From assembly GCA_965649825.1 (NCBI GenBank), contig OZ287706.1:434001-498000 (forward strand): 64,000 bases of DNA, in the 5' to 3' direction. Positions 12,015 through 36,787 of this stretch are shown one piece after another. This DNA is from Penicillus capitatus (taxonomy: Eukaryota > Plantae > Chlorophyta). Position 1 is the first letter of the stretch. The number at the start of each line of letters is the position of its first letter. The notes below the pieces were generated by a model. The model searched no databases and was not told the DNA's origin. It saw nothing but the letters and a program-made list of their open reading frames with translations. Made by a program: the position numbers and the translations under genes.

Positions 12015-12021
12015 TATAAAA
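12015..12021 (+). promoter_or_regulatory. TATA box of the two-trefoil gene (duplicate at 28591-28597)
   Basis: TATAAAA lies about 75 nt upstream of the ATG and is conserved in both copies. Confidence 0.45.
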
Positions 12022-12093
12022 ACAGGTCCGCTGCGAATCCGAGCATCATTCGCTCTGTTTCGTCTCCCCGTTCGACAGCCGTTTGTTGATCCG

Positions 12094-14412: not shown

Positions 14413-15429
14413 CGATGTCCAAAATGAACATGTTCTGTCCTCTTTCTGTCGCTTTAGCATGGAATCCGCGTCGGCATAAACATGGTGTTCGATTGTCTTC
14501 TTCCTTTCGGTGTTGCTAAGACATTTGCTCCTCGATTGATAGTGCCGGGCACAAACTCATAACGCGCATTCGTTTCATTGTGCAATATGTGTCCAAACAG
14601 CGACACATCTGACGTCATCTTCAATCCAATTTCCCGAAAGTCTCTATTCTATCACTGACCTATTATCCGAGCGAACTTTTGTGTCAAAACATCCCCGGAT
14701 ACCTCGAGTCTTCCGCACTGTCAGGAAAAAAACCCCTTGAGTTCTCCAAGGTAGCTTGACGTTATCTCGAGCATGGTGTGTGATCCGAGATTCAACAGTT
14801 TCCATGACTTACCTTTTGCATCTTCACCGTATAACATGCAGGCCGTGTAAAAATCCGTCCGATTAGTGTACAGCATGAATCTTGAGAATACTTCCCATAC
14901 GAGATTTACTACTTCCCAGCATTCGAGCGCTTGTTCATGGAATAGAACACATCCTCGTCTCAATGATTCCATGCCGACCGATGAAAGAAATACCACGGTC
15001 AGGGTGCACAGGGAAGCACATGGGCGTATGCAAACGTCGCGTCGGACGGTGGGACCGCACGACAATCAACTGCCGCATGTCGCGTTGTCGGTGAACAACG
15101 GCTTAACGACGAAGGCTTATAACTTACAAAGACTGTTGAATCATTATAATCCGGATTATATACGCGTCGAACGTACGCAAACGTCCTATCAACGCGTCTC
15201 CGTTCGTCAGCTGCACGAAGGTGGACAGGTATCCACTGACACCGCATTAGATGCGTCCGACACATTGTAACTATTACAGTAATCGCGCGATTCATTCGTC
15301 CGTCTTGTTCTCCGCAGCGTCGAGCTCCGCGTCATGGACGGTCGACTGACGTGGGCCCAGATATCCATTGAGTTCGAGTATCTAAGTGGACTAATGAACA
15401 CATGCGTCTTGGTAGTCGAAGTGAGCAGA

Positions 15430-16400
15430 ACCTTCATTCCCGAAATACACTTCTTCGGCATGCTGTATATGATCTTTCTCTGTCCGACCTTCAGTCCGTC
15501 TATCATAGCAGGAATCGATCTCTGGATGTCTGCTTTGTAGAACGAGACGAGCTCCTTGTTGACAAATCGGTCTACCTTATCTTCGATTCACTATAATCCA
15601 TAAACTTCTTCTCCGTCATTGGAGCGATCCACTTCTTTCTGTCTTCCACGCGTTTCTTCGAGAATACCATATCGATGGCTTCATCTGCTTCTCCTCCTAG
15701 AAGGATATACACAATGTAGAGTGAGGTTTTGTAGAACTGAGATCTTCTGACCCTCGTATGTGAACTCCTTCCTATGAAACGAAATCGCCTGGAAGCACTC
15801 TAGAGCTTTTCTCCGTGAGAACGCCCAGAGTCCTCTGAAGTATTTGACGTTCCGCTCGTTTTGCCTAAACTCAGCTCCTCTTTCCATCGCCCATACTCAT
15901 TGACGGCGAAGAAAGCTTTTACATCGCCCTTGTGTTTTACATGTGGTAGCAACATGGCCCTTTACCGGAGGTGAGATGGAAGGATTACTTTAACGATTGG
16001 AGTGACGAAGACCTCTATAAATTTGGCAGTTATAGCAGCAATAGATGACAGCGACGAAGGAAGTTAATGGCTAAGCCCTTAATGTGGGCACCATTGGCAT
16101 TCTGATCACACGTCAGAAGTATGCGACCGTATCGCAGACTCGTCAGATCTCCATGCCTCTCGAGACAGATGAGACAGACAACGATATACATTATCAATCT
16201 CGTTGGTCATCAGGTCTTCAGTGTCCGTGGGCTGAGGTGACAAGCCCTGTCTTCCTGTCATTGTAAAACACGAAGGCGTTACCACCTACTCGATCCCGAG
16301 GACAGCCATGAGGTCCCTGTCGGCCTAATGAGCACTAAAGATCATTACAATTAAGGGATTTGGCGCTTCGCTGTGGGGAATTATTCGGATTTAAGATTTC
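15430..16400 (-). pseudogene. TOP2: DNA topoisomerase II (type IIA) fragment: Toprim and start of the WHD region
   Basis: Recognisable motifs in order: SLRYGRILLTCDQNANGAHIKGL, FVTPIVK, NVKYFRGL, EAIDMVFSKKRVEDRKKW, VNKELVSFYKADIQRSIPAMIDGLKVGQRKII. It contains a TAG plus frameshift, a degenerate DxD motif and a GT-AG intron. The catalytic Tyr region is absent. Confidence 0.85.
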
Positions 16401-16439
16401 GCACCACCTTCGTTTCGTTCGTTTCTCCGACGCTGGCGC

Positions 16440-17250
16440 GAGTCCCACAATCCCTGATCTCGTGGTTGCTCTCGGGATCGTCCTCGGATGTCACATTCTT
16501 CATCTACCCCCTGTCGAGTTCACCTGAATCAGGAAAGGAAGACTGAACTTCTCACTTTAGTCCGTAGACCCAGAAGGCCTGACGACCAATGACATTAAGA
16601 ATGCCCATGTGGGTAAACTGCATCCCAGAGTCGCCCTTGGCCAATATGAGGATGCACTCGGCGGATTTCTCTCTTCCTGCCCAGTCGGCATCTAGGTGGC
16701 AGTTGTTCGGTGCCAGCAAAAAGTGAAAACCAGGAGAGGCGAATGACAACTTACGGTAAGTCTTCTTTCCGAAGGTCTCTCTCCTCTGGGGATCTCAACG
16801 ACGAGACAGTGGATCTAACGCCAACTGGCACCAGAAACCAAATCATCGCAATTACCGGTCACGGCATTCATGATACCTTATTTTTATGCAGTATACATAT
16901 ACGCCGTAACCAGAATTCGCGATTATGGCAAGCACGACGACCGGATGGATGATGACGACACGTGTTGTGTGTCATCCTCAATCGAACTTCATGAGCCATT
17001 TATATCCATGACTGCTAGAATATCCGAAAGCAACCTTTTTCTGCAAATGTTCATGAATTCTCGCCGTCTTCCACATTGCTAATAAGATCCCCTTGCGCTC
17101 TCCGAGATAGCTTGATGACATTCTTGGTAAAGTGTGAGAACTGATGTCCACTAGCTTCAATGTTCTATCTCATTTGGCATCTTCTTGACAGTCACATTCT
17201 ATTGTCCAAATATTCTGATGGCCATCATCTTCGCTGGCAAGCAACAGACT
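16440..17250 (-). pseudogene. TOP2: Second, more decayed topoisomerase II fragment (transducer to Toprim start)
   Basis: HLDADWAGREKSAECILILAKGDSG..GILNVIGRQAFWVYGLK resembles the Top2 motif KLDDANxAG...CTLILTEGDSA...GRxxxGVFPLRGK. The upstream part is only weakly recognisable. Confidence 0.55.
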
Positions 17251-17509
17251 CTCTCGCTGACACTGTACAAGTGGAGTTTCAGCATCCCACTTGTCTTCTC
17301 GAGAGATGTTAACAGCAAATCCTTTGGCGAAAAGCCGAGACTATTGCATCCACCTATCAATTCTGCTGCCTATAGTTTAGTTAGTATTTTCCATTCGTAT
17401 TTTCCACTCGTAAGGTTTTAAAAGAAAGTCCTGCCCAAAGATATGCCTATTACGATGAGGCGTAAAAAACCTTCTTCACAAAAACAAGTCGTCCGGTCAT
17501 TTCTTTTTT

Positions 17510-19480
17510 GCCGATGTAACAGGTCATAAAAATTCTCTTAAAATTGACATGGGCTCATCAGCTTCCTTGTCCAAACTCCTAAACCTGGCCATAGGATCAA
17601 TGAAGATATCTATGCAACTGGTGACCGTGGAAAGGCCCCGTAGTCAGACTCGAACGACAATTACGTACGGAAAAAACAATGATCTGAGTGTTTATTGCTC
17701 TCGTAAAAGGTCCTTTCCATGACTCTCGGAAAACTGAAGGCGAAATTAGCCTCACGGCAAAGACATGAGTTCATGTCACGTAACTAGAATTTCCTTTTGC
17801 TTTGAAAAACACACAGTATCGTCATCGACTCTCTTTCTACTTAGTATACAAAAGCGAAGAATCTATCTGTTCGGTCGGAAGGTTGCATATCCGAAAAGAT
17901 GCAAAAAGTTCTTTCCAATCAGACGACCAAGGACATAACTTGGTCCGATGGAGAATCTCTTGTTAAGTCAGAAACTCGCTGAGAAGAGAAACTACAAGGG
18001 AACCCCGAGAGATGTACTTTCTGGCAGTACCAAAAACTCCCAAAAACGAAAGCAAATCCCGCACACATGTGACGGTCCGACTTATAAGGTTTATTATGGA
18101 TCGTATGTTCGTCAACAGGTTGTTCTTCCATTGGACAGAACATCCCAGCAAGGGCATTATTGTTCTCAATGGCTCAGTTTCCAGAACAGTGCTTTTTTAT
18201 ACGCAGACTGTATCGAGTAAAAATCTCAAACAATGATGTCAACGATTTGTGATCCCTTCAGCGCTGTTTGGTAAGAACAAGACATATCTCGTGTAATCTA
18301 TAGCTGCACGATTTCTCAAAAGATACGTTAGTCGTTGATGAAATTAACCATGAGATGCAATAAAACGTTGAGGAGGACGTTCTAGTTATATACCTTGCCG
18401 CCAAAATCGAATTCAAAGAGTCCGTTCGTACATTTCTGCATCCGATGGCAACGAAAAAAACCCAATAAACCCCGTCGGTGATATCCAAGGCCACAAGGAT
18501 TTCAAGATTTTGGGATACTTCGGAGAGTCTCTTGTGCCGATACGAATTCTGACCAGGGAAGGACAAAGTGCGTGTTGAGATGACGAAGGTCATTTAACCA
18601 TCGGATCTGCTTTCGTACTAACTTGGAAGAAAAAGAGATGGGTTTTTGTACGCGCTCTTGCCCTCAGGAATCTCAGGAAAGTGACCAATCTTGAGGATTT
18701 TACGAAAAGCTTCGTCTATCCATTCTTTTGGAGCCGAATGGTCTACCGTAAAATCCACGCCAAAATTGGTATGGAAAGCTATTTGATTCGAACATCTGTC
18801 ATTGTAAAAGCTAAGTTTTTCCATGGCTTTTGGTGGACCCTTTTAATTCGGTTTCGTAAAAATGACAAAACCGTATTTCCCGGTGTTTTGACTCGGGCTA
18901 TTTGCGAGAACGAATGTCCATCTGGAAGAGCATGCTCCGCTTTTACTTCCCTCCGTTTCGGTTTCGAATGAAGATACTGGATTTGTAGGGTCTCCAAAGA
19001 TCGAACATGAAGGAGGAAGGTTCGGGCTGCAATTACCGCAATACGAGAAAAACAACGAAAGAATCACACAAATCTCTCCTGAAGATGATGAAAAATGTGA
19101 GATGGGTGGATTTCCCTCGCATGGCAAGAGTTGACAATGAAAAAACCTTTCCTTAAATCAACCAAGATAGCAAAATCGTTGGGTATTCCGTAGTCACCAG
19201 AAAGCATGATCTTCCTGCAGGCAAATGCACATCGTGCTTTCTCTACTCTTTCGAGCGACCGATTTTCCTCACAAAGCCATCTTTAGGTAAGGTAAATCGT
19301 GAGTAAAAACTGTGCCGATCGTGCCGCATATCGAACGACCTTTCGAAGGGATTTTATTCTCTCGCAGAAAACACAAAACCGAAAGTCGGCCGTCCAGTTT
19401 TTCGTTGATGAAACGGGAAAAACTCGAATCGCACTGCCAGATTCAAAAATCCAAAATCGATCGAGAAACAGCTTCTATGT
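17510..19480 (-). mobile_element. Ty3/Gypsy RT/RNase H remnant, copy B right part
   Basis: Near-identical to 5850-7794. Shows RT-like LDITDGVYWV and thumb-like VRDLLSFLGVFGTARKYI. Confidence 0.7.
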
Positions 19481-19934
19481 GAGATGTCTGTGGTAATCCT
19501 CGAGAATGCAGCACCTAAATAACAAGCATCAGAAAACGCCAAGAACAGACAGCGACCACACTTTCGACACACTCAATCTTCACCTGGCCTAAGGCTATCT
19601 CGACAGAAGATGGATGATCTTGCGGTTTTCACCACTTTCCTGAATATGATCTACAGTCCAGATGGTGGCTCGGGGTAGGATCTACGGTCCAGCAGGCCCC
19701 TCGTGATTCCTAGCCTTGATCCATGTCGCGGCACCACGGACGATATAGATAGATCCATAGTATGGTGGGCAGATCGGCTAGCCATCTTGGCAGTGCAGCA
19801 CAGCCATCTCTCTGGAGCTGGAAGCAGCCCTCATGCTGACAACGCGCAGCGACGCGTTCGACGTATGGATCGGCGAACGGATCGAAACTGCGAAAGTCGA
19901 CGCCCACCACATTCAGGATCTAAATAGGGACTGT

Positions 19935-20238
19935 TGTCGCGTAGGGTTTTAGATGGAAACAATTTAAACGGTGGGCGCACGTAAACCTTTGAAACGTAAA
20001 GTCTTACAAACGAAAGACAAGATCTGTACATCTACAACGCTTTTATAGGGTACTTTATTTTAAGTAACAAAAAGGAATATTCTGCGAAGATTCCGGAATC
20101 TGCTTGGAATCTGTGACGTAGAGCCGCGGGTCTATTTGTGGATGGAAGCTATAGAGAACCTACGACCTGTCACTTGGAGATCGACACAAGTGTAAGTAGA
20201 TGAGCGCATTATCGTGAGCGCTACGCCTTAACACGACA
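19935..20238 (-). repeat. 3' LTR (304 bp)
   Basis: No difference from 26447-26750 seen by eye. Contains minus-strand TATAAAA and AATAAA, and the perfect palindrome GATTCCGGAATC (20089-20100). Confidence 0.97.
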
Positions 20239-20247
20239 TGGGCCCAC

Positions 20248-23200
20248 CTATCTTCTGTCTAATCTCCGAAGGAAGTCACGATGGACATTGTGCAGCGTCG
20301 AACCGTTGGGCATACGGATATCCCAACGGTGGTCACTATGTTCCTTCACTACAACACAAGGAGAGACCCATTTGGAGTATAGTTTGGAGTCGAGGCGGTC
20401 GGCCAACTTTGAGTTGTACCACGAGACCTCTGCTCCCACTTCCATGGGACGGTTCTTGACTTTCTTGTGGTGTCTTGTCTTATTTTGCTGGTGTGCCTTA
20501 ATTATTCGTTGATAAGCTAGTCCTCGGTCGGTGTCCAGCTGTTGTGGACTAGTTATCGTGCCGTTCCGTTGTGTGCCAGTTAGAAGGTATTGTGGACAGA
20601 ACAGAGTCGTACTATGAATCGTTCGGTTGATTTCATGCACGCTCGTGCTCACATGTGTCGTCCAATCACCCCCCTTTTCCGCCCATATCCTCCGAAGTCG
20701 ATTTACGAGGTTTCGGTTGAACGCCTCGACAGTGCCTGCACTTTTGTGGGAATAGGTTGGGGTGTGTAGAATGTCTATTCCGTGCTGTGCGCAGGTACTC
20801 TCGAAGCTCCTGGCAATGAAGGCGCTTCCGTTGTCGCACAGGATCCTCTGTGGAGCCCCAAAGTTTCGTGCCCATTCGAGTACCAGCTTAATAGCCTGTG
20901 CTGCCGAGCACGTCTTACATGGGCGCCCCACGCCGAACTTAGTGAAAGCGTCGATCCCGGTAGCGATATACCGAAACCCATGGCTGCCACGGTTCAGCGG
21001 TCCTATGAAGTCTAGACACAGTGTGTGGTTCGGGGATGGACTGTCAATCATACCCAAGTCCACCTCAGATCGTGGGTTGCGAAACATTTGGCACGTCTCG
21101 CAGTTATTGACGTAATCTCGCACGTCATTGAAGTCGTTCGTCCAGCGGGTACCGTCGGACCGCAGGTTCAGGAATGTCTTCTTGACCCCGAAGTGGCCTG
21201 CATGCGCCTTCTTGATGAGCTCGGTCCGTTCTTCCGGAGTATAGGATACGGAGTTCACTTGATATCCCTGTTGCTTCTTCTTGGTGTGAAATTCGACAGG
21301 TGCGTTGTCTCTCCATCGGCTGAGAAGATCCGCTATCACGTTGTCCTTCCCCTCTACAAAACAGAAGTGGAGACGATCATGGGAAAAGTGGTGCCGGAGC
21401 CAGCAATGCTGTCTCTGGATCCGGAGGTCCTTGAACTTGTGCAGGAATGTCGGCTCCTTGAGCCAATTGACCGTAGCCATGTTGTCGGAGTAAACGAATA
21501 CCTCCGTCTGCTTGATCACAAAGTAACATTCCTTCAAGGCCCGTACTATTCCCATCAATTCTCCCAGAAAACTTCCGACCCTCTGTTTTGTCGTAAAAGA
21601 TCCAAAGAGAACAGGTTGCAAGGTCGAGTTAAGCAAAACGTATCCGAACTGGTTGAGTGGGTTACCACACCAATCCGTATACAGATGGAATGGCCCCTTT
21701 CTTTCCAACGTCAGTCGGTACGTACTGATGCACAGAGATTGAACTGCGTCTTTGTAGATCTCGTCGGCTTTGGTGTAGTCGTTGTGTTCGCGTTTCAGGA
21801 ATGGCTTGAGCCGTGTAACGATCGCGTCGTATTTGTAACAGTACTGTGCCAGTTGCTGGCACAGACCCATGGCCTTCTGAACGTCGTGACGTGACGTGAT
21901 TGTCGGCAACTTCTGGAGTATAGCCTGGGCCCTGTGGTAGGGGTTTAGCGTCCCGCCACTGAGTTCGGTACCCAGAAAGCTCACCGATGTCTCAAACCAG
22001 TCACACTTTTGGCAGTTGATCGTCAGGCCGTATTCGTCAAAACGTTTTAATAAAAGCTTGGTCTTGTCTAGGAGTTCCTCCTCCGTTTCGCCGCCGATAA
22101 GTATGTCATCGAAGTATCGGACCACATCCAATCCTTGTAGGATGTGGGTCATGCGGTTATTGAAAAGCTCCGGACTGACGTTGACGCCTTGCGGCAGTCT
22201 CCGAAAGCCGTACGTCACGCCGTTCCAATGTAGTGCAAAGAAAAGCGAGATATTGTCGTCGATGGGGATGGAGCCGTAGCCGTGAACAATGTCCACGATG
22301 GTGTATACGGTCCACTTGGGATCCACCTTCTGGATGATGTTGGACACCGGAATGATGGTCCCCCCTTGCGTTCCTTCGAGGTACGTGTTGATGTCGCGGA
22401 AGTCAATGGTGGGCCGGATCTTGCCATTCGGTTTGCGTATAAAGTTTAAAGGTGCTACGACAGCGTGTATTGCCTCTGCAACAGACAGCTGTCGTATAAC
22501 ACCCTCCTTGTGTAGCGAATCGATCTCTTTTGAGATCTCTTCGTTGGTGAGATCTGAGACGTAGTTCTCCCTCCAGCATGGCTTAGGCTCACCGTGCCAA
22601 CAAAGATCCCTGTTGCGTACCCTGATGTCCCACAGCCTGCTGGTCGTCGGGCGAATGGTGTCCGAAAAGACCAGGGGAAATTCTTCTCTTAGCCGAGCCA
22701 CTGTTGCATCCTTGTCTACTGGTGTAAGAACGCTAATGTTGTTAACACGCTTGGTCTTCACTTTCAGCGGGTACTCCGTTCCATCGACGTCGGTGATGGA
22801 ATCAATGTTTCCTTTAGCACAGCACAGTCGCATCTTGCTGGTGACATGCTGTGGAACATCGGATTGGTTGAAGATTACCACGCTGATCTGACCATTGGCG
22901 TGTAGCTTGACTTTGCAGAATATACTCTTGTTATGGGTGCAGTCAAAAAATGCCTTCCATTCTGTTGTCTCGGTGAACTGGAAGGGTAGGATGATGCGGC
23001 GGCTCCGAAAAGGTCCCAGCACAAAACTTCTCCCTGCCATAAAGACGATCCAGCCGTTTTGCTTGAACGGGAATAACTCCCGGTCGATCGACTCCGTGAC
23101 TAGGAGTGGTGAAGGTGTCGGTCTTTCTCCCTGTTTCTTGTGCAGCGTCTCGTCGTTCCAGTTCGCTTTTACTAGTGCCAGGCGTTTTATTTGTGGTTCT

Positions 23201-23250
23201 TGTGCGTCGTCGTCTGCCTGCTGAAAAACAGGCGTGTACCTCAGTTTTTT
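20248..23250 (-). CDS. pol: Pol: degenerate dUTPase-like segment, reverse transcriptase, RNase H, integrase (probably expressed by -1 frameshift from ORF1)
   Basis: RT motifs VDIVHGYGSI, LPQG and YFDD (22105-22116). RNase H motifs LYTD, GELMG and VYSDN. Integrase HHCC (HAGH..CETC) and the D-D-E core LDFIGP / CDNGSAF / VEAFNR. The frame stays open upstream of the ATG at 23040 as far as the end of ORF1. Confidence 0.93.
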   Translation of the reverse strand, partial: KKLRYTPVFQQADDDAQEPQIKRLALVKANWNDETLHKKQGERPTPSPLLVTESIDRELFPFKQNGWIVFMAGRSFVLGPFRSRRIILPFQFTETTEWKAFFDCTHNKSIFCKVKLHANGQISVVIFNQSDVPQHVTSKMRLCCAKGNIDSITDVDGTEYPLKVKTKRVNNISVLTPVDKDATVARLREEFPLVFSDTIRPTTSRLWDIRVRNRDLCWHGEPKPCWRENYVSDLTNEEISKEIDSLHKEGVIRQLSVAEAIHAVVAPLNFIRKPNGKIRPTIDFRDINTYLEGTQGGTIIPVSNIIQKVDPKWTVYTIVDIVHGYGSIPIDDNISLFFALHWNGVTYGFRRLPQGVNVSPELFNNRMTHILQGLDVVRYFDDILIGGETEEELLDKTKLLLKRFDEYGLTINCQKCDWFETSVSFLGTELSGGTLNPYHRAQAILQKLPTITSRHDVQKAMGLCQQLAQYCYKYDAIVTRLKPFLKREHNDYTKADEIYKDAVQSLCISTYRLTLERKGPFHLYTDWCGNPLNQFGYVLLNSTLQPVLFGSFTTKQRVGSFLGELMGIVRALKECYFVIKQTEVFVYSDNMATVNWLKEPTFLHKFKDLRIQRQHCWLRHHFSHDRLHFCFVEGKDNVIADLLSRWRDNAPVEFHTKKKQQGYQVNSVSYTPEERTELIKKAHAGHFGVKKTFLNLRSDGTRWTNDFNDVRDYVNNCETCQMFRNPRSEVDLGMIDSPSPNHTLCLDFIGPLNRGSHGFRYIATGIDAFTKFGVGRPCKTCSAAQAIKLVLEWARNFGAPQRILCDNGSAFIARSFESTCAQHGIDILHTPTYSHKSAGTVEAFNRNLVNRLRRIWAEKGGDWTTHVSTSVHEINRTIHSTTLFCPQYLLTGTQRNGTITSPQQLDTDRGLAYQRIIKAHQQNKTRHHKKVKNRPMEVGAEVSWYNSKLADRLDSKLYSKWVSPCVVVKEHSDHRWDIRMPNGSTLHNVHRDFLRRLDRR

Positions 23251-26200
23251 GAAACGGTGACGTTGTGGATCAAGATTTTGTTGCCTTTGTCGTCGTATAC
23301 GCAGTCCTCACTGCAGTCCAGCTGCAGTTTGAACGCTTGGAGGGCCTGGAGTCCCAGAATTGGACGTTGGACACCTTCGCAGACGACAAAGGGTATCTTC
23401 GCGCCTTTGTTTCCTAAGGTACACAGCATGCAGACCTCGCCGCTGGCACTAGTCGTCTGGTTGTTAAAGCTCGTCACGTTATGGACCTTCGTGGACCTGA
23501 GTACCAGATTATGCTTGCGCGCCATCTTGGCCGGAAGGACATTCGTCTCGGCGCCGGTATCCAGCAGACAAGATATTTTCCCAGCGATGTCCTCCATAGC
23601 GAGCATGACGTTGTAGCGTGCCATTCTCGGAGAGGTCTGACCCTGAGTTGGAGATGTCTGGGGTACCTTTTTCGAATCCTGATGTCCGGGAGCTCTTTCG
23701 ATCGATGGGCAGTCCTTTTTAGAATGTCCCTTTCTTCCGCAATTCTCGCAGGTATGACCAACCTCTTGACGTACGTTTTGCTGGCCACTGGCCCTGGCGT
23801 GCCCTCGACTGTTTCGTTCCTGCTGCAGGCACTCGTCGATGATCAGTTGCACGCGTGGCCAATTCGCTGCATCTCCCCACGGCAGCCCACGTAGGCGTGA
23901 TTGGATATGTGTATTCGCGATATTGAAGATCCGCTCAGTCGCTGTAGCATACTTGAGTGGGTCGTGTACCAACTCAAGTAGCTTCGACATCCGTCGTGCG
24001 AACTGAGATAGATTCTCTTTTCGTTTGGGCAACAGCATGTGCACGTCCTTCATAGAGGGTCCCTTCTCGTTTTGTCTTGTGGGTGCGTGATTTCTTGTTG
24101 TGCCGGGGGTTGTGGCATTCTTTCCCTGACGCTTCTGTTCCTCTTGCTGTCGTTGCGTGGCCTTTCGAACGTCAGGTGACAATTCAGGGTGATGCTGCTC
24201 ACAGCTAACCTGCTGAATTCGTGTCCGACCTTCGACTGCTTCTAATCGCTGTCCGAGACTGGTAAAACTCGCCCCAATACTTTCCTCCAACCTCCCTTGT
24301 CTATTGACAAGTCTGCCTTCGAGTTCTTCGGCACGTCTCATGAGCTCCTCTTGCATTGTCTGTATACCTTCCATCAGGGATTGTATTAAGCCTCCTTGTT
24401 CAGTGTCTCGACGGGCCTCCGGTAGCGGATCTGGGTGGATTTCAGTCACTATATTCTGTTGGTTCGCCCGTCGTGGCGACTGCTGAGACGGCGGAGACGG
24501 CGGAGACGGCGGAGACGGCGGAGACGGCGGAGACGGCGGAGACGGCGGCGACTGCTGAGACGGCGGAGACGGCGGCGACTGCTGAGACGGCGGAGACGGC
24601 GGCGACTGCTGAGACGGCGGAGACGGCGGAGATTGCTGCGTGGTCAGTTGTTGAGTCAGCTGCCGTGCCTGATCTTTGTGTCCCCGTAGCAGATTCCAAA
24701 TGATCCTAAGTAGCCACCAAATCCCCTGCGTCACGGCTACGATTTGCATCACCACCTTGCGGATGTTCCTGAATACTTTCAAGATCCACGCGGCAACTTT
24801 GTATAAAAGCATAGCAGCGCCTAGCAACTGCCAGCCGTTTCCTGTAGCCAGGGCGCTACGAATTGCTTTGATTCCAAATTTATCCCATAGTGTGCCCAAC
24901 ACCCATGTAACTGCGTTATCACGGGTACCGGTTAGCCATTTTATAGAGCGGTCGAGGAATGTATCATTCCCGCGACTGCTCTCCCAACCGTTAGCCTGGC
25001 TTTCGCAGATGCAGTCGTCTAGAGCCGTCTTCATGTTGCATGTATGTTCGTTGATCTTGTTTATTGTCTCGCGGATATTACTGAGAGTGTCATTGAGGTG
25101 CTGCCAATCGACGTTAGAACTCTTAGCATGTGACTCTTGCGACGTTTCAGGTCCTTGGCTGTCTGTCGACGAACCATTTACAGTGAGGTTCAGGAACTGG
25201 GTGATGCCGTCCAAGGTCTCTGCGACGTGTCGCACTTCTCCTACGAGAGAGGACTTCCTAGATGGGAAGTTGTTGATGATCGAGACTGTCGCAGTCGTCA
25301 ACAAGCTCGCTGGGGAGAATACGGACAACACACCTCTGTTTGTTGCCCAGTTGATGATCCCATGAGTAGTAAGACCTACGACAGCACTAGTGATCATTGC
25401 GTCAACATATTCTGGCCAAGTGATGTCGATTCCCATTCTGAAGTCCGGAATCATGTACCAAGATTGTTCATCTTCGACAGGTAGAGCATTTCCCATCTCG
25501 TGCAGGTTGAAGACATTTTCTGGGGGGAGTTCTTGTTCTGTCCATTGGTCTTCGGACTCTTCGGACTCTTCGGACTCTTCGGGATCGGATCGCGGAGCCT
25601 CTTCGTCGAATAGATCTTCCGCCAATTCTACCGGAATCTCGTATTCGTCATACTCGAGTTCGTATGCTTCTGCGCTGGGTTCCGTGTCCAGCGGTAAGTC
25701 CGTATTATTCTGCACGTCTTCATGTTCTGCGACGGGGATAGCGAACTCAAAACGCCTGCGGAGGGCTCTCGCCGATCCTGCTATGGTACGTCTGTCTTCT
25801 TCGGCATGTGTGTCTTCGCACACGAGGTCGTGTACCTTCTGTCTAGACGCGTCCAGCAGTGTCTTTTGTTCCCACGTCTGTGAATGAGTGCCAGGGATCA
25901 GTAGAAAGAAGGACATTCCTGTAGCTAGCAACGGTTTTCCTCCCCAATAGACCAGGGAACCTTCGCCGAGAAGCATGATCAGCATATTGGCTTCCTCGTA
26001 CGTAATGCCTTCGCTTGCGTCATAGAAGATGATGCCGTTAGGGCACTCTTTGACGAAGACCGCGATCTCCCTTTGAATTATTCTAGCCTCATCCACAGAT
26101 TTGGATTGCGGTTTAATATACTTGAAACAACTACTCTTTTGCAGACTAGGCTCAGTCTTGATTCCGTTAACCAGCGAGTCGCATGTACTTGTCGTACAGT

Positions 26201-26447
26201 AGAGAATTGTAGACGTCGCTTTATCGTAAAAATTGTTGCCTACCTTGTCGTTTATACTACGGGCAAGGTTATCGACATACTGATCTATCCAGTCTCCGCC
26301 ACCGCGGACGTTTTCCTGGATGCTTGTTAGGGTTTTATTCCGTAACCCTATTATTCCATCCTTCCAGCCAAACCATGAGCCGTGCGTGACGGCGGCAAAG
26401 TGTAGAAGAACCCACAACAGCATTGGGAGCACTCGCTCCGAAACCAT
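23241..26447 (-). CDS. gag-pro: ORF1 polyprotein: signal peptide, degenerate Torsin/ClpB-like AAA+ domain, acidic linker, hydrophobic segments, SPP repeats, coiled coil, Gag with CCHC knuckle, aspartic protease
   Basis: Begins MVSERVLPMLLWVLLHFAAVTHG. Contains CENCGRKGHSKKDC (23709-23750) and LLDTGAETNVL...PILG (DTG at 23553-23561). Single uninterrupted frame. Confidence 0.88.
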   Translation of the reverse strand: MVSERVLPMLLWVLLHFAAVTHGSWFGWKDGIIGLRNKTLTSIQENVRGGGDWIDQYVDNLARSINDKVGNNFYDKATSTILYCTTSTCDSLVNGIKTEPSLQKSSCFKYIKPQSKSVDEARIIQREIAVFVKECPNGIIFYDASEGITYEEANMLIMLLGEGSLVYWGGKPLLATGMSFFLLIPGTHSQTWEQKTLLDASRQKVHDLVCEDTHAEEDRRTIAGSARALRRRFEFAIPVAEHEDVQNNTDLPLDTEPSAEAYELEYDEYEIPVELAEDLFDEEAPRSDPEESEESEESEDQWTEQELPPENVFNLHEMGNALPVEDEQSWYMIPDFRMGIDITWPEYVDAMITSAVVGLTTHGIINWATNRGVLSVFSPASLLTTATVSIINNFPSRKSSLVGEVRHVAETLDGITQFLNLTVNGSSTDSQGPETSQESHAKSSNVDWQHLNDTLSNIRETINKINEHTCNMKTALDDCICESQANGWESSRGNDTFLDRSIKWLTGTRDNAVTWVLGTLWDKFGIKAIRSALATGNGWQLLGAAMLLYKVAAWILKVFRNIRKVVMQIVAVTQGIWWLLRIIWNLLRGHKDQARQLTQQLTTQQSPPSPPSQQSPPSPPSQQSPPSPPSQQSPPSPPSPPSPPSPPSPPSPPSQQSPRRANQQNIVTEIHPDPLPEARRDTEQGGLIQSLMEGIQTMQEELMRRAEELEGRLVNRQGRLEESIGASFTSLGQRLEAVEGRTRIQQVSCEQHHPELSPDVRKATQRQQEEQKRQGKNATTPGTTRNHAPTRQNEKGPSMKDVHMLLPKRKENLSQFARRMSKLLELVHDPLKYATATERIFNIANTHIQSRLRGLPWGDAANWPRVQLIIDECLQQERNSRGHARASGQQNVRQEVGHTCENCGRKGHSKKDCPSIERAPGHQDSKKVPQTSPTQGQTSPRMARYNVMLAMEDIAGKISCLLDTGAETNVLPAKMARKHNLVLRSTKVHNVTSFNNQTTSASGEVCMLCTLGNKGAKIPFVVCEGVQRPILGLQALQAFKLQLDCSEDCVYDDKGNKILIHNVTVSKN
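23244..23250 (-). promoter_or_regulatory. Putative -1 ribosomal frameshift heptamer A AAA AAC
   Basis: Lies immediately before the ORF1 stop, and pol is in the -1 frame. A GCCTG/CAGGC stem starts 10 nt downstream (23216-23233). Confidence 0.7.
24472..24635 (-). repeat. Coding tandem repeat (9 nt units) encoding SPP/SQQ repeats
   Basis: Plus strand (GGCGGAGAC)n interspersed with GGCGGCGACTGCTGAGAC; translates in ORF1 as QQSPPSPPSQQSPPSPP... Confidence 0.9.
26430..26446 (-). promoter_or_regulatory. Primer binding site TGGTTTCGGAGCGAG
   Basis: Directly abuts the 5' LTR. Matches the plant initiator-Met PBS TGGTATCAGAGC at 10 of 12 positions. The priming tRNA is not established. Confidence 0.7.
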
Positions 26448-26750
26448 GTCGCGTAGGGTTTTAGATGGAAACAATTTAAACGGTGGGCGCACGTAAACCT
26501 TTGAAACGTAAAGTCTTACAAACGAAAGACAAGATCTGTACATCTACAACGCTTTTATAGGGTACTTTATTTTAAGTAACAAAAAGGAATATTCTGCGAA
26601 GATTCCGGAATCTGCTTGGAATCTGTGACGTAGAGCCGCGGGTCTATTTGTGGATGGAAGCTATAGAGAACCTACGACCTGTCACTTGGAGATCGACACA
26701 AGTGTAAGTAGATGAGCGCATTATCGTGAGCGCTACGCCTTAACACGACA
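26447..26750 (-). repeat. 5' LTR (304 bp)
   Basis: Direct repeat of 19935-20238. Confidence 0.97.
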
Positions 26751-28669
26751 CTGTCTGCCGGACTTGCATGGAAGTGAAGAACGGAGAGGCGCGCGGGAGC
26801 GACGGCGAAGGACTCGCCGCCGGAATCCCTCCGTGTCGCGCTCCGCTCTGCGTTCTCGCAACCCGGCGCCGTCGACCTGTCTTCGAACCGCCGAACGGGT
26901 CCCGCCGGAGAAAACGCGAACGAGCTTCCTCGGCCGCTCGAGGCTGACGTCCGAAGGAGGAGGCGTAAAACGAGACCGGTGCAGGGTGATGCTTCGAGCC
27001 ATGCGGTTTTGGAATCCGCATGCACCAGCCGACTTTGTGTTGCAGGCTGTACGACGCATCGTCGAGAGCTGCGCCGACACGAGAGGCGCGCAGGGCACGT
27101 GGCCGTCGCGTCGCACAATACCTCGGCTCTCGGTCGTGAAGCGAACCGGTCGCCGCGGAGACCCGACAACGCCACGGCGAGCAGGCGAACCGCGACGGCG
27201 CCGTCTGGATGAGATCGGAAGACAAGCTTCCGTCGTCTTCCGGTCCAGCGGTCCGGGAACAGCTGGAGTCTCCTTCCGAATGCGCCGCCCGAGGCAGTCA
27301 TCTATGCATCGAAGCCTCGGAGTTCGGTGCAGGGGCAGACGCGGAAGCTCGAAGAAGGCGGCGGGTACATCCGCTGTTCAGATCGCCTGCACGAAGGTCA
27401 GCTCTTGCGTCTCTCGGTCTCCCTTTCGACGTCGTCGCAGATCTCTTTCTTGCCGGCGAGTCTGAATGCGCCGTCCATCTCGACGGTTCCGCCGCTGGTC
27501 GGTCCTGGCCAGGCGAGCACCGAGTTGCGTGGATGCATGGGACAGACAAGCCTCCCATGGCGAGATCTGGCCAGCTCACCTTCCGAACGCACGGGACTGG
27601 GTTTCACGTCCTTCGCAGCGGTGACTGCGTTGCGATGAGAGGAAGGTGGGATCCCCATTCTTGCATCGATGCCCAAGGAGAGTGAGATCTTCTCGCTGCG
27701 TGCGCCGCGCCGAAGCCGATGTTATCTCACGACGATGGACCGAGGAGCCATCTTGTTCCTCGCCGACTGGCGTCGTCCAAAGCTCCGAGCTTCTGGCCGC
27801 GCTCATCGCAGACATGTCGTGGTCACTTCACGCCGTGCAACCGACCGCGCATGGATAACGGCAGTGCCGAGGTCTGTCTTCCGCGGCGGCGATCGGATGG
27901 CCGGCAGAGTGAGACCAGACAGATCGCATGTCGCGGCAGTGAGCAATCGACCGATCCGTGACCGTCGGGCAAAGGGACGTCTCATTCCACAGGACCCCGG
28001 GCCTCGAGAAGCAACTCAAGGCACTGAGGTCGTCACGCCGCTTCAACAAGGGAGGGACAAGCGATGGCGGCAAGCACCCGATCTGTCACCGCCACGACAG
28101 AGTTCGCGGGCAATGGTTGCCGCGGCAAAGCTGCTGATGCCTGTCTGTGTCGCAGGGAATCGCCCTCGACTGCGTATGCTTGACCGGCTACCCACTCTCG
28201 AACGGCAGACACAAGAGCTTCCCCGAGTTTCGTCTTTCTTGTGACGGCACGTCAGACGAGAGATTTGCTGCAACTCTCGGTCAATGGACAGGTAGACATC
28301 CGTGTGTCTGTTCGACCTGCATCTGAGAAATGGGAAGTGGACCTGGTGGACGACATCAGGGGAACTGTGTTGCTCTTTCACTGACTGCATCCATGCCTTT
28401 CTTTTCGAGGACATGGATTACGCAGGAGGCCAGTGCTCTCCGAAGAAACGTCGCCGCCGCCATTTTTTGCCATGAGCCCTGACGGTTGGCACAAGTTCCT
28501 CCGCCTACAATTTCTGCTCCGAATATAGAGGACGCGAATAGTTTCAACGCTGGCGTGGCACCAACGCATCAAAGCCTGCCAGTCGAGAACTATAAAAACA
28601 GGTCCGCTGCGAATCCGAGCATCATTCGCTCTGTTTCGTCTCTCCGTTCGACAGCCGTTTGTTGATCCG

Positions 28670-29536
28670 ATGCGTTTGGTTCTCTTCTTTGCGCTGTTCG
28701 CTGCTTATGCAGCCCTGACGGCAGCTCAAAACACGTGCGTTCGTAGTGAGCATCTTAACGATTGCGGTATGCACTTTCGCCACGACCGTTTTCTCATCGT
28801 GCGAGAGTTTTTTAGGATATTCGGGTATTACCAGAGACGAATGCCTGGACAGGTGTTGTTGTTGGCATCAATTTGCTGAAGGTTCAGGAAAGCCTTGGTG
28901 CTTCTACCGTAACGGTGGATACGAATACTGCGACAACTCGCGCTACAGAAGTGATTGCGGTGAGTTTTCGATCTCTTTACGTTGGCATCTATTGCTTCCA
29001 CTTTTTCTGTAGGTACTATTAGCACCACACAAGAGGAGTGCGAATCTTATGGCTGCTGCTGGAACCCCAATGATCCATATCCAGCCTGCTTTTACAGGAA
29101 CGCCCATCATGCCCCCTCTAGTCAGTACAAAATGATGGAAGACATGGTTGACGGTAAGGATCTTTACCCCCCACCTTTGAACGTGTCGCCCTTTCGGATG
29201 GCGGCGGCTCAACCCTTTGTGCAGCTGCGGTCTAGGAAGAGATCGAAGGCTTTGGCAGTCGTAATGAAGTCGCGCGCCGCCATCGCCCTCAAAGACGCAA
29301 AGCCTTCTTCCACTTTCTGTCTCAGTTTCATCTTTTCTTACAATCGACTCTTCTCACGGGAGTCGCGCAGAAGACGGGAACGAGATCCGTATCGGTCGTT
29401 TTCCAGTCCTCGAGAATGTCTTTTCTTTTTGCCAATTTGTCAAACACTCCAAACGTTGGGAGCAGATTCAAACATCGATTGTCTATCCAGCCATCATTCC
29501 GGTCCTTTGAGAGGATGGATGCACATGGCTCTTTAA
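28670..29536 (+). CDS. Small secreted two-trefoil protein, copy B
   Basis: Same exon structure as the gene at 12094: ...NDCG|YSGITRDECLDRCCCWHQFAEGSGKPWCFY...SDCG|TISTTQEECESYGCCWNPNDPYPACFY. The 3' end is uncertain. Confidence 0.8.
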
Positions 29537-30619
29537 ATGCCACTTACAAACCACACTGCTGTCCCCGTCGAGTCCTGCAGCTTATCCTGTCGTACATGGA
29601 GCAGCAGAAAATCCAGAGTGAGCATATACATGTGTGACGTTAGGGGGGCCTCTCTGGGAACATGTATGTCTCTATTCAGATCGTCAAGATCTAGTAATTC
29701 TGATCGTACTTGTAAAATGATTAATCATTACAGATGAAACGCGAGCTTCATTGTTAACTCATATACATTGACTGCCCAACAATGTAGAAAGACTTCTTTT
29801 CAAGAAATGACAAGGGGTAAACTTTGATCTCAAGACCTTTGATAACTGACACCCATTACAGTATAAAACAGAGCCTTTCGCGTTCCGTATCCAAAAGTAT
29901 AACTGTCTGTACAGAAGCGTTTGTACTCCTCCTCCTCCTTAGGCACGGTCCCTAGCAGGTGTAGAATTCTGTCTATGTTGAGTTGCTTTCCTTAATGAAT
30001 ACCAGCTTGCAAACCGACAGCTCCTCAGGTTTCAAGCTGGAGGCAGTTTCGCTCTTCTTCATCCTACCATGACTTCATCATTTAATCGAACTGACTCAAC
30101 GAGATCCGATGGATCTGCACTAAGAGCGACGTCGTCTTGTGCTCGTTTAGTGTCAGCAAGGGTCGATAGTGCTGAACTCTGACCTTGGAACGGCAAAGCT
30201 GGAGAGCAGTGCCGGGCAGAGCCGATGGTGTCCGTCCTTCATCAGAGACGTCATACCTTACGTGTCACGTCGTTACATGGGTCATATCTTGTGAAGGATG
30301 CAGATTTCTAGAAAAGAAGACCATCTCCACCGATGATTGAATCTGGACGAGTTGTATGCCGACGCGCCATCTCTTTCAATGAAGATCCATCCGTCATTCC
30401 TTTCTTGTGGATTGCTTTCAAGCCATGGCATATCGCTGGGTGACTTCCAGAGCCGTCCAACAAAGTCTGATGACTGATTGATGTGACAGCATCTCTCTGC
30501 AGTTCAACATGCTTTTCATGCACCTAGCAAAATGGAAAAGATCGTACTCATCGCGAGCATTGAAGGTAGATAGTAGGTACATACACATCAGAACGATCCT
30601 CTAGGTAATGTCTGAACAC

Positions 30620-32350
30620 ATCCGCTGCCATCCGGCTGCCTCTTTGACTCAGTGGCGCCTCTCTTCGTGTTCGCGCACGAACACGGCCTCAAATTCCGTT
30701 CGCTGAAACGCGACAGTGTCCGTAAATTCTGCTCTAATTCCGGACGCCATTGGTGGACGCAGCCTCGTGGAGAGGTCGAGCGGTTAGCAGATGACGGTGT
30801 ATGAGTCACCTTTCTCTGCCCACCGTCAACTCGGTTTTGAAGCCGTCTTCTAAATCGAAAAGGACCATCCCCGTTGCACCACTTCAGCGACCTCGAGCGA
30901 ACGACCCGGGTTAAGAGAGAGTCCTGTCTGGTAGATCTGGCGAGAATGTCGCGCCTTTTCCTCTTCGTTCTCTTCCTCGCCACGTCGCGCGCTCAGTCGA
31001 CGGAGAGACCTGTAGGTAAGAGATGTCGTCCTCGAGTTCGCCTAGATGCACGGTCGTGGCACCATCTGGGCTTCTTTGACGGTGCATGTGAGAGAATTCT
31101 GTGCAGATCCGGAAGAAGATAGACTTCACTGGACATGCTCTTTCTTCTACATTCCTTGGCCTGTCTGCGGAGAGGATCGTGTTACCTACCTGAACCGCTG
31201 TCTTGCGGAGTTGCATGACACCACAGTCGCTTGTTACAAACCCTGTCTATTTTGCCCCGAGAGTGCGGCTTAACGCAAATGATGCTCAGATCTCGACATC
31301 CAGATCTCTCTCCTTCTAGGTCCTGGGGGACCAATTCCTTTCCCAACCCCTTTCAAATCTCAACCAACACCCGTCGCCACGGCCGCGCAATCAGGAGTGG
31401 ATAGTTCCGGATTCACTTGCGACACGAGCGGATCATCATATCTCAACGATTGCGGTAAGCGCACTTCCTAGAATTGGCATGTGTTGAATGTGTGGAGTTT
31501 CAGGGAGAGGTCCCATTACTGAACCGGAATGCTTGGCCAGAGACTGCTGCTATCATGAATTCGGAGAAGGATCTGAGGAACCTTGGTGTTTCTTCAAGAA
31601 CTCAGGATACGATTACTGTGCCAATCAACTTTACAGAAGCGACTGCGGTGCGCTACGGTCCCGTTGATGTGACAGATCAGATGAGATGCTTTCGACTGTG
31701 GTGTGACAGGCGAGCTCAGTACGACGCAACAGGAGTGCGAGGATCGCGGTTGCTGCTGGGACGAATACATTCCTCTGCCTTCCTGCTTCTTCCAGAACTC
31801 GGACATTGACCAATCCCGTTGTCAAATTCCGGAACCCGATCGCCAGCCCTGCGGTAAACGCCCTGTTTTGTGATCCAGTCATTGACGGAGAGCTTCGTTA
31901 CTCCTGCTGCGCCTTAGGTGACGGCAGCAGCCAAGAAGCGTGCGAAGGATCTGGCTGCTGTTGGTGGCCTCTTGAAGAAGGATCCCAAGAACCGTGGTGC
32001 TACACACCCACGTCCAGTTCGTCGATGAAAAACGTTCTTCGCGGCGACCTGTCAGGTTTGGCATCAAGAATCGAACAATGGACCGCTCTTTCGAGCGGCG
32101 GCGGTCTAAACTTTGGGTACAGCTTTTGTCTAGGGGAAGCTCGAAGGGCTGTGGTGGTCGCAATGAAGTCACGGGCCGCCATCCCGCTCAAAGACGCAAA
32201 GCCTTCTTCCACTTTCTGTCTCAGTTTCATCTTTTCTTACAATCGACTCTTCTCACGGGAGTCGCGCAGAAAACGGGAACGAGATCCGTATCGGTCGTTC
32301 CCAGTTTTCGAGAATGTCTTTTCCTTTTGCCAACTTGTCAAACACTCCAA
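30620..32350. repeat. Left arm of an inverted duplication (partner about 46345-48290)
   Basis: Reverse-complement near-identity across the trefoil exons, introns and upstream region. Confidence 0.9.
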
Positions 32351-32369
32351 ACTTCGACAAAGATTCTAG
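30946..32369 (+). CDS. Secreted Kazal plus three-trefoil fusion protein
   Basis: MSRLFLFVLFLATSRAQ signal peptide. Kazal motif CSFFYIPWPVCGEDRVTYLNRC. A predicted phase-1 intron (gtgcgg...ttctag) skips the stop at 31271-31273 and leads into PGGPIPFP...TCDTSGSSYLNDCG and three trefoils. The 3' end is uncertain. Confidence 0.7.
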
Positions 32370-32618
32370 GATTATTTGTCCAGCCACCATCCCTCTCGCT
32401 TGTGAAGATGGATGTGCATGGATCTTTGAATTCCATTTGCAACACACTCTACTGTTTCCGCGTGTTTCGCAGCTTGTCTTGTCTGACGCGGAGCTACAGA
32501 AAGTTCAAAGTGGACAACGTCATACGACGCCAGAGCTTCGTGTCATCATTCCTTTGTGCAATGTAATCCAACCTTCGACAGAATGCACGTCTACGGAAAT
32601 CAGGTCTTCGTTGTCTTT

Positions 32619-35105: not shown

Positions 35106-36787
35106 ATGGACAGCGCGTCTTTCCAGACGTCGAGCAAGAAGGGCGATTCAGGGCTCATGGATGTGGAGGTTATGAAACTCAGAAAACACCAGAAACATCT
35201 GCTTGGCGCTTTGGCCGTTCTTCTGCTCCTGAGTCTCTTCTGCGTCGCCATGGTCATTTGGCTCGCCGTAGAGGTGTCCGAAGACAACGACGACAATGGC
35301 GGCGGCGTCAGAGATGCGTCCAGTGAGAGTGTAATCCCTTCGACGAATCGTGCATCCACGCTGAATGTGTTTATTATCTTGCCCTTAAAGTGATGCGTCA
35401 ACGTGGCATTGGCGATCTAGGCAGAAGATGGACATGTGGTGACCTTGACTTCAACACCAGCCTCTTCGGCCGAAGCCCGGCCATTGCTGGTCGGAACTGG
35501 GTACTGGGCGAGGAGGACGTCTCTTCCCTATCGCCTGTGTAACCACGCTGTACATTTCGTGCTCATGCGATATGGACATCTGACATGGAGTGTCTGTTCT
35601 AGGCAGTGGCTGTCGATGACTTCATTTACATCATTGGCGGCAAAACCGATCAAGGTGATCTGATTGATAACGTAACGATCTATGACACTATCATGGATAC
35701 CTATGAGGATGGACCGGCAATGCCATCTCCACTCTTCAGATTTGCCGCTGCCTATGATGCCGAAAACCGACAGATCTACGTCTTCGGAGGTATGGATGGT
35801 ATGGGTGGTGATGCCATGGATACCGTCTACATACTGAACGTTACTTCCGGGAACTGGACTGAGGGCCCCGAGATGCCGTCCCCTCGTTCGGATCTATGCG
35901 GTGCCTATGTGGATGGTTACGTCTATGCCATCGGTGGTTACAGTACGGGCAAGAATGAGACCCTGGACACAGTGGAAGCGCTGAATATCGAGTCTGGAGA
36001 GTGGGAGAAAATCAAAAGCATGCGAACACCCCGAGGCGATTGCGCTGCGGCCGCGATGGCTGGAGGAGTGATCGTGGTAGGAGGATACTACGACCCTGAG
36101 GGCGAAGGGAATCACGAAGGCTTGCTCGACGAAGTCGAATTCTACTCACCCGTAAGCACTGACTGAGCCACATACCTAATATGCAATCGAGAGAGTATAC
36201 TCTGCAGGATGATGATACCTGGGAAGAGAGAGCTCCGCTGAAGAATGCCGGTGGAGAAAAGGCTGTTATTGTTCTGCCAGGTGAACGTCTCTTGGTCGTC
36301 GGAGGAGAAACACACAACAGAGGTAGATCATCTAGAAAGATAGACATTGGCTTTTCGATGCTGTGTTATCGCAGGTCAGCATAGAGATGTTGCCACGTAT
36401 TATGTCGAAGAGTACAGCATGTCTACAAACACTTGGGTTGATCGTGCTCCTCTGCTGTTCGCCACTTTCAGAACAGCTGGCGCTTATGTGAATGGAGTAG
36501 TCTATGTCTTTGGCGGTGATCCGGTTTGTGGATGCTCTGGACATCACGGGGAAGGAGATCACGAGCACGAACACGAAGAAGATGACGACGAAGATGAGGA
36601 GGGAGAGCACGAGCACGAAGATGAGCATGAGGAGGGAGAGCACGAGCACGAAGATGAGCATGAGGGGCATGCACACGAACACGAAGATGAGCATGAGGGG
36701 CATGTATACGAACACGGACCTTGTGTCGAGTCCAATGTTCTCCAAGTCTATTTCGACACAGCACAACCGAACATATTTATTGCATAA
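35106..36787 (+). CDS. Type II membrane Kelch beta-propeller protein with a His/Glu-rich insertion
   Basis: N-terminal hydrophobic helix LLGALAVLLLLSLFCVAMVIWLAV. About six Kelch repeats (IYIIGG, IYVFGG, VYAIGG, VIVVGG, LLVVGG, VYVFGG with the conserved W). HEHEDEHE tract in the last blade. Confidence 0.88.

Follow-up and report, generated by a model that had tools for sequence, protein, structure and literature searches.

A Ty3/gypsy-type retrotransposon of the green alga Penicillus capitatus with a predicted secretory leader and a LAP1/LULL1-like pseudo-ATPase domain in frame with Gag

The stretch of DNA analysed here (the window) comprises 64,000 nucleotides of contig OZ287706.1 of Penicillus capitatus. 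It contains a complete long terminal repeat (LTR) retrotransposon of 6816 bp on its minus strand (19935-26750), with the domain order of Ty3/gypsy elements. The first open reading frame (ORF1) of this element is a stop-free frame of 1100 codons (26543-23241, minus strand), or 1068 amino acids from the ATG at 26447, and holds in this order a predicted signal peptide, a domain of 209 residues, an acidic linker, hydrophobic segments, Gag and a protease. By its structure the element is of the Ty3/gypsy type, and the module added to it is likely a host-derived pseudo-ATPase resembling LAP1 and LULL1 and not an Env. We consider it probable that the product is a membrane-anchored Gag whose pseudo-ATPase part lies in the lumen. 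An initial annotation of this DNA had noticed the single open frame of more than 1000 codons, the layout of which is repeated in three other copies (P0003, P0004 and P0019), and had interpreted its N-terminal part as an env-like ectodomain. This latter interpretation is not supported, since the fold predicted for residues 35-243, which have a cellular relative in algae, is that of an AAA+ pseudo-ATPase and not that of a viral fusion protein.

An AlphaFold (AF2) model of this domain from a single sequence was poor (pLDDT 43) and yielded generic P-loop matches only, with Z under 7. The final model, built from 14 sequences, reached a pLDDT of 81.5 and a pTM of 0.81 and exhibited an AAA+ alpha/beta fold without the C-terminal helical subdomain, as in LAP1/LULL1. 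Among the Foldseek candidates, VIA-align placed LAP1 (4tvs_B) at the top with Z 14.6 (root-mean-square deviation 3.4, 191 aligned) and LULL1 (5j1s_B) second with Z 14.3 (3.5, 190 aligned), the second AAA+ domain (D2) of ClpB coming next at Z 13.1. Against 48,161 chains, LULL1 was first at Z 14.3 and the runner-up reached 12.4. The 50 matches listed from BFVD, a viral library, were AAA+/SF3 proteins, with no named fusion protein among them. The best TM-score against the domain model in this library, 0.65, belonged to entry A0A8J9YIQ9 (553 aa).

The P-loop position is occupied by C84-x4-C89 in place of a Walker A motif, this cysteine pair being nearly invariant in the alignment, and the Walker B motif reads IIFYDA in the element, with its glutamate lost, and VVLRR-like in the algal proteins. 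Judged from these residues, the domain is without ATP binding through the canonical motifs. Arg230-232 (25752-25760) end the helix before the last strand, which is the arginine-finger position. LAP1 R563 and LULL1 R449 fall on Arg231 if the ends of the aligned ranges are used (model 209 = LAP1 575 = LULL1 461) and the last 12 residues are assumed to be free of gaps. LAP1 is described as having no Walker A motif, a degenerate Walker B motif and no C-terminal domain, while keeping R563, and this retained arginine activates torsin (PMC4358337). Residues 35-243 are predicted to be an AAA+ pseudo-ATPase of the LAP1/LULL1/ClpB-D2 type.

A search with residues 9-599 against 1.84 billion representative proteins gave 10 matches. 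Nine of them resemble this element family: P0004 carries knuckle and protease, P0007 an integrase, and the others are context-free fragments. The tenth, P0011 from Chlorella ohadii (E 1.1e-5), is cellular; no ClpB was among the 10. P0011 consists of a SAP domain, a basic region, one strongly hydrophobic helix with a Kyte-Doolittle hydropathy (KD) of 2.26, and two copies of the domain. Six further proteins combining SAP, a transmembrane segment (TM) and the pseudo-AAA domain (P0013-P0018) were found in Chlorella, Micractinium and one additional assembly. A hidden Markov model built from the element sequences alone gave all seven Chlorellales proteins 19-39 bits, whereas 210 shuffled sequences remained at or below -0.2. 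Element and Chlorellales domains share the cysteine pair at the P-loop and the terminal ALRRR motif. Since the sole cellular match is a Chlorella SAP-TM protein with LAP1-like architecture, a nuclear-envelope protein of the host is the likely source from which the element took its domain. A profile search for longer homologues, covering 1270-3625 aa, gave no match. The SAP-TM-pseudo-AAA proteins are themselves uncharacterised; their architecture is LAP1-like, some have two domains in tandem, and it is possible that they are the algal counterpart of torsin activators.

The module is maintained within the element family, for which our data stem from one study (3 runs, contigs) or from ENA contigs and may represent a single lineage. 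Three more ORF1 proteins, P0003 (1086 aa), P0004 and P0019 (1124 aa), are open over their full length and have the same layout. The family alignments A1-A3 comprise whole proteins, and no stretch of A2 was sufficiently conserved for a scan. Identity to P0004 was 92/173 (53%) in the domain, 84/100 in the membrane-proximal part, 67/85 in the putative capsid and 98/123 in the protease, so that the AAA-like domain diverges faster than capsid and protease (79-80%). In a subfamily of about 32% identity, signal peptide and domain are kept (P0007, P0021), as is the middle part (P0005). ALRRR is present in all six element sequences that reach it (window, P0002, the P0003/4/19 group, P0005 and P0010). 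The region 25719-26447 is under purifying selection: among contigs covering it, evaluated at 40 of 42 variant sites, 21 variant sites were at third positions, no stop occurred, both indels were of 3 nt, and 17 of 33 changed codons were synonymous, where 28% would be expected (p 0.004). Over residues 1-305, P0003 does not differ from the window, and yet it shares the region from the SPP repeats to the linker with P0004, which suggests mosaic copies arising by recombination between subfamilies. In P0007/P0020 (ENA, 515 aa), the signal peptide, with the larger part of the AAA-like domain, is joined directly and in frame to integrase; this is likely an internally deleted element, which would yield an integrase fusion in the secretory pathway.

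The N terminus of ORF1 was called a signal peptide in the initial annotation, and hydropathy agrees. The start codon at 26447 is made of the last A of the LTR and the TG of the primer-binding site. It is the first AUG past the inferred transcription start, with G at -3 and +4, and the window and all nine family proteins in our set that reach the N terminus begin with MVSER. A second in-frame ATG lies within the signal-peptide region at 26423. The ATG at 26543 was rejected as a start: it is located within the LTR, 10 bases past the TATA box, and is absent from diverged copies; as TATAAAA begins at 26559 in the 5' LTR, this codon likely precedes the transcription start. The primer-binding site is itself coding, and the primer tRNA would anneal across the first ORF1 codons (26447-26429). 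The hydrophobic core in the window comprises 11 residues with a KD of 2.35 (2.3-2.7 across the family), and core, small residues and conserved Trp are found in 10 of 10 rows, i.e. the window and nine relatives. The N terminus of ORF1 is predicted on this basis to be a signal peptide. A secretory leader in frame upstream of gag, as proposed initially, is conserved across the family and would place Gag on a membrane.

The two hydrophobic regions noted initially, here H1 and H2/H3, are indeed present, though their hydropathy is moderate and two of the four stretches are strongly amphipathic. Hydropathy peaks were found at residues 347-365 (KD 1.25), 373-391 (1.71), 541-559 (1.76, with one Lys) and 565-583 (1.67). 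A Trp-rich stretch precedes H2, and basic residues follow H2/H3; the downstream flank of H2 has 8 K/R and 1 D/E, the upstream stretch being basic too (6 K/R, 2 D/E). Between H1 and H2, 8 of 10 a/d positions of the heptads in 445-482 are hydrophobic. N-glycosylation sequons occur at 420 (kept in 4/4 sequences), 424, 452 (3/4) and 494 (3/4). The simplest reading of these features would place the chain in the lumen up to about residue 535, with a single span at 537-560, H3 lying at the cytosolic side of the membrane and a cytosolic Gag. A span at 373-391 with H2/H3 lying in the plane of the membrane would likewise keep Gag cytosolic, whereas with an even number of spans Gag would not be cytosolic. 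H1 may form a hairpin, a single span or a luminal stretch.

Several observations weigh against a membrane-anchored, LAP1/LULL1-like reading of ORF1. Foldseek itself put Skd3 and ClpB first and TorsinA eighth, and LAP1/LULL1 lead ClpB D2 by just 1.2-1.5 Z units, at 6-9% identity. A joint profile run against the PDB (E up to 10) returned ClpB, ClpC, ClpA, Skd3 or Hsp104/101 in 43 of 44 matches (best E 3.7e-6) and no LAP1, LULL1 or torsin; Pfam LAP1_C was absent among the matches listed (25 of 32 families, with a shallow profile). A ClpB-type domain that decayed convergently or in parallel may account for the likeness to LAP1. Where the Chlorella proteins reside is deduced from just two features, SAP and one TM. 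No algal torsin has been identified, a search of the host genome for one not having been made, and torsins and their cofactors are described as metazoan and present in all metazoans (PMC7175109). The selection test relies on collapsed contigs of one study. As to topology, the stretches reach KD 1.25-1.76, as compared with 2.26 in the control TM (P0011); the hydrophobic moment is 1.27 in H2 and 1.32 in H3, and 0.18 in that control. The spans being weak, more than one number of membrane passes is possible. Sequon enrichment is modest, with 4/14 Asn in the putative luminal segment versus 5/23 in the cytosolic-side Gag-protease part.

The combination of a LAP1/LULL1-shaped leader with a predicted signal peptide and an anchor makes it likely that particles are built on the endoplasmic reticulum (ER) or the nuclear envelope. 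Translation would start from AUG 26447, and the signal peptide would bring the ribosome together with the genomic RNA to the ER; the Gag proteins of Ty1 and, as cited there, of the intracisternal A-particle (IAP) are targeted to the ER in a manner dependent on the signal recognition particle (PMC3945221). Residues 24 to about 535 would be luminal, H1 forming a hairpin or staying in the lumen, and after the predicted span at 537-560 an odd number of spans would leave Gag, protease and the Pol made by frameshifting on the cytosolic side. Assembly of Gag and Gag-Pol would proceed while both are tethered to the membrane, and the protease would free the core. More speculatively, the luminal domain might act, by analogy, like LAP1/LULL1 through ring-type contacts and an arginine finger, its target being a luminal AAA+ protein of the host or the domain's host paralogue at the inner nuclear membrane. 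Particles would so be concentrated at the envelope, and may co-opt its remodelling and help the element to reach the nucleus. In many chlorophytes, and likely in this host, the nuclear envelope stays closed in mitosis. Torsins have reportedly been connected with the budding of large ribonucleoprotein particles. They also act in the passage of herpesviruses through the nuclear envelope (PMC7140721). We give the full model, in which a captured domain and the anchoring of Gag serve a role at the nuclear envelope, an even chance of being correct. That green algae possess an unrecognised LAP1/LULL1-like system at the nuclear envelope, that the luminal activator domain of this system was captured and joined to Gag, and that capsids formed at the envelope hijack a torsin-like remodelling machine in order to cross it, opening a route into or between nuclei without Env or pores, is a tentative extension and on balance doubtful.

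The initial annotation had also envisaged cell-to-cell spread. The ER lumen or perinuclear space is favored instead because the domain is of the LAP1/LULL1/ClpB-D2 type and has a cellular relative. A related alternative would retain the env idea, for spread among cells or nuclei, in another form: residues 347-590 would be a novel fusogen, the AAA-like domain its surface or receptor-binding subunit, and particles would bud with an envelope protein of their own. Two features of an Env, a signal peptide and a downstream TM anchor, are present by hydropathy, and the succession of hydrophobic segment, heptads, CxC, Trp-rich stretch and anchor resembles that of a class I fusion subunit (PMC5408684); non-canonical fusogens do occur in LTR elements (PMC11952523). 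Residues 347-590 could be fusogen-like in this sense, the likeness being one of order only. Searches of Pfam, PDB profiles and PHROGs, however, gave no env, fusion or viral glycoprotein match for them, residues 35-243 are AAA+-like in their predicted fold and not of a viral fusion type, and no furin-type site precedes H1, basic sites being confined to 219-232 and 560. Just one site is polybasic, namely the arginine-finger motif, which lies about 115 residues ahead of H1 and is shared by the cellular proteins. A trimer prediction for residues 335-590 scored 0.00 with the segment's own fold uncertain, and bears neither way. Considering also that the N-terminal domain derives from what is likely an ER or nuclear-envelope protein of the host, and that algal cell walls would presumably impede both budding and entry, we regard an Env-Gag fusion as unlikely.

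A membrane-anchored Gag as the main product also has to be weighed against two further explanations. Splicing or internal initiation might give a soluble Gag-protease from Met692 that forms particles of the usual kind in the cytoplasm, the long membrane form being an accessory in the manner of glyco-Gag, for example a decoy against a defence at the host's ER or envelope. The initial inference that every Gag molecule enters the secretory pathway would then not hold. Met692-1068 has the size of an ordinary Gag-protease, Met692, 698 and 703 are found in P0003 and P0004 as well, a GTAAG at 26519 resembles a splice donor, pyrimidine-rich CAG sites in the SPP repeat (24609-24480) resemble acceptors, and a single RNA of murine leukemia virus (MLV) gives rise to two forms of Gag (PMC3042739). 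These splice sites are motif matches only, though, and none of the 11 contig joints listed in the sequencing runs has intron-type ends on the minus strand. With AUG 26447 so favorably placed and many AUGs upstream of Met692, leaky scanning to the latter is unlikely, and the 590-codon leader is in frame with gag in 3/3 other full-length proteins; there is little probability, in our judgement, that two products are made in this way. Alternatively, the captured host fragment might merely be carried along, its hydrophobic part serving at most as an anchor and the AAA-like domain having no specific role. The faster divergence of the domain, the possible origin of the family members from one lineage, and the known acquisition of host ORFs by LTR elements (PMC5408684) would fit a passenger. 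The purifying selection on the domain region, the presence of ALRRR wherever sequences reach it and the retention of cysteine pair, signal peptide and fold motifs even in relatives of about 32% identity speak against it, and we deem it very unlikely. We continue to prefer a Gag that is anchored in the membrane and has its pseudo-ATPase in the lumen.

The features of the element are listed in Table 1. The CCHC knuckle and the aspartyl protease seen initially were recovered in Pfam at E 7.5e-4 and 7.4e-6, respectively, both below the curated cut-offs; the acidic linker and the SPP repeats are there as well. The capsid-like region did not find such backing: residues 666-916 match no Pfam or PHROGs family besides the knuckle, and the capsid is placed by position. 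A 7-bp hairpin follows the slippery heptamer, its fold being no better than that of shuffled sequences (z 0.53), and we infer from the sequence that pol is expressed by -1 frameshifting. Reverse transcriptase (RT; E 2.7e-22), RNase H-like and integrase domains follow in Ty3/gypsy order, and the best PDB match of pol is Ty3 Pol (E 3.4e-21). No relatives of pol were present in the viral or metagenome contigs searched. The roughly 280 residues between frameshift and RT (23307-22450, minus strand) match no family; part of this region resembles a degenerate dUTPase by eye, a reading that was unsupported in Pfam, PDB, PHROGs and NCBIfam.

Table 1. Features of the element, in window coordinates
Feature	Position	Strand	Remarks
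LTR retrotransposon	19935..26750	-	LTRs, target-site duplication CTGT, primer-binding site, empty site
5' LTR, 304 bp, TG..CA	26447..26750	-	
Primer-binding site TGG...	26429..26446	-	doubles as first ORF1 codons
Predicted cleavable signal peptide, residues 1-23	26379..26447	-	hydropathy; small residues before conserved Trp
Predicted LAP1/LULL1-like AAA+ pseudo-ATPase domain, residues 35-243	25719..26345	-	AlphaFold model, structure and profile searches
Acidic, poorly conserved linker	25533..25718	-	24/61 identical to P0004
H1, residues 347-365 and 373-391: two G/A/S/T-rich stretches of moderate hydrophobicity	25275..25409	-	
Heptad pattern (445-482), CxC pair, four N-glycosylation sequons; likely luminal	24950..25274	-	
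H2 (537-560, a likely transmembrane segment with one Lys at its centre) and amphipathic H3 (561-588)	24684..24839	-	
Ser/Pro/Gln spacer (SPP), 9-bp repeats, variable among copies	24492..24650	-	
Gag proper: helical from Met692, putative capsid ~796-880, CCHC knuckle 899-915	23712..24395	-	
Aspartyl protease, end of ORF1	23244..23612	-	
Slippery heptamer A AAA AAC directly before ORF1 stop	23244..23250	-	pol in -1 frame
pol, 1019 open codons: ~280 residues without family match, RT, RNase H, integrase	20248..23307	-	
3' LTR, 304 bp	19935..20238	-	

The element is young, intact and recently inserted. Its two LTRs are identical (304/304 bases). It sits in a segmental duplication, the other copy of which (about 9670-12950) is element-free; the target-site duplication is CTGT, 4 bp, because the filled site has two CTGT and the empty site of the paralogous segment (about 10160-10170) a single one. 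Contigs of sequencing runs X1 and X2 join across the insertion site, and their source could be an empty allele or the element-free paralogue. A TGTAA at 26520 in the 5' LTR, which we take to be a chlorophyte-type poly(A) signal, overlaps the donor-like GTAAG. This signal and the Chlorellales origin of the nearest cellular relatives of ORF1 fit a green-algal host, as does the cytochrome c1 encoded in the window, with 369-394 bits against four entries, presumably of plants and Chlamydomonas, and no more than 307 against the remaining 28. No tRNA gene is present in the window, the purine tract before the 3' LTR is only weak, and pol ends 10 bases before that LTR with no separate ORF after it. TG..CA LTRs, target-site duplication, primer-binding site and the order protease-RT-RNase H-integrase agree with Ty3/gypsy elements (Metaviridae). 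Elsewhere in the window, segmental duplications (88-97% identity) and inverted copies occupy 5136-19934, 26750-32500 and 46359-48276. They include small, secreted-looking genes with Cys-rich repeats (about 28530-29100 and 31700-32000), presumably trefoil-like, and a fragment near 15207-15587 that we assume to be topoisomerase II-like. At 36535-36705, 12-bp repeats code for a His/Glu-rich tract adjoining a kelch-repeat ORF (35603-36166).

If our reading holds, a host-derived luminal pseudo-ATPase tied to Gag would be a third use of membranes by retroelements besides Env and small fusogens. How LTR elements enter the genome under a closed nuclear envelope is an open question, to which this element contributes one domain and one arginine motif; if true, its route into or between nuclei would use neither Env nor nuclear pores. 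The data further point to LAP1/LULL1-like proteins in green algae despite the description of torsins as metazoan, which bears on the origin of torsin biology. In the literature covered, which leaves subscription journals largely outside, we found no published account of this architecture or of an algal LAP1-like protein.

Among known systems, the luminal domains of LAP1 and LULL1 (TOR1AIP1/2; PDB 4TVS and 5J1S chain B) resemble the element's domain in predicted fold, missing Walker A, degenerate Walker B, missing C-terminal subdomain, the arginine ending the helix before the last strand, and predicted luminal position. They differ from it by an identity of 6-9% and the lack of a profile match; the element's domain is fused to Gag, and no torsin partner is known in algae. 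In LAP1/LULL1, moreover, the N terminus is nucleoplasmic or cytosolic and a single TM immediately precedes the domain, whereas the element has a signal peptide before it and anchors after it. The Chlorellales relatives do have the LAP1/LULL1 layout. These SAP-TM-pseudo-AAA proteins (e.g. KAI7844878.1 of Chlorella ohadii) are the closest cellular relatives, with about 20-24% identity, the cysteine pair and ALRRR, and differ by their N-terminal SAP/basic region, single TM, one or two domains and the lack of retroelement parts. The second AAA+ domain of ClpB/ClpC/Skd3 is the best profile match (E 3.7e-6) and close in fold (Z about 13), but belongs to ATPases that are active and possess Walker A/B as well as a helical subdomain.

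Among Gag proteins, those of IAP and Ty1 share the co-translational delivery to the ER and an assembly nucleated there (PMC3945221; IAP as cited there); they have no large luminal folded or captured host domain, and Ty1 Gag is without a signal sequence. MLV glyco-Gag likewise is an N-terminally extended, ER-targeted Gag, but its extension of 88 residues starts at an upstream CUG, its N terminus is cytosolic and it is accessory to normal Gag (PMC3042739), whereas the element has 690 residues before Gag proper and a predicted orientation that is reversed. Errantiviruses, which carry env (PMC13524379), bdelloid LTR elements with captured enzymatic ORFs and an env-like ORF3 (PMC5408684), and MDG1 elements with sORF2 fusogens (PMC11952523) all combine an LTR element with an added membrane protein. 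There, the env or sORF stands as an ORF of its own and has the features of a fusogen; in the element of Penicillus capitatus, the addition is in frame with gag, and its folded domain is predicted to be a pseudo-ATPase.

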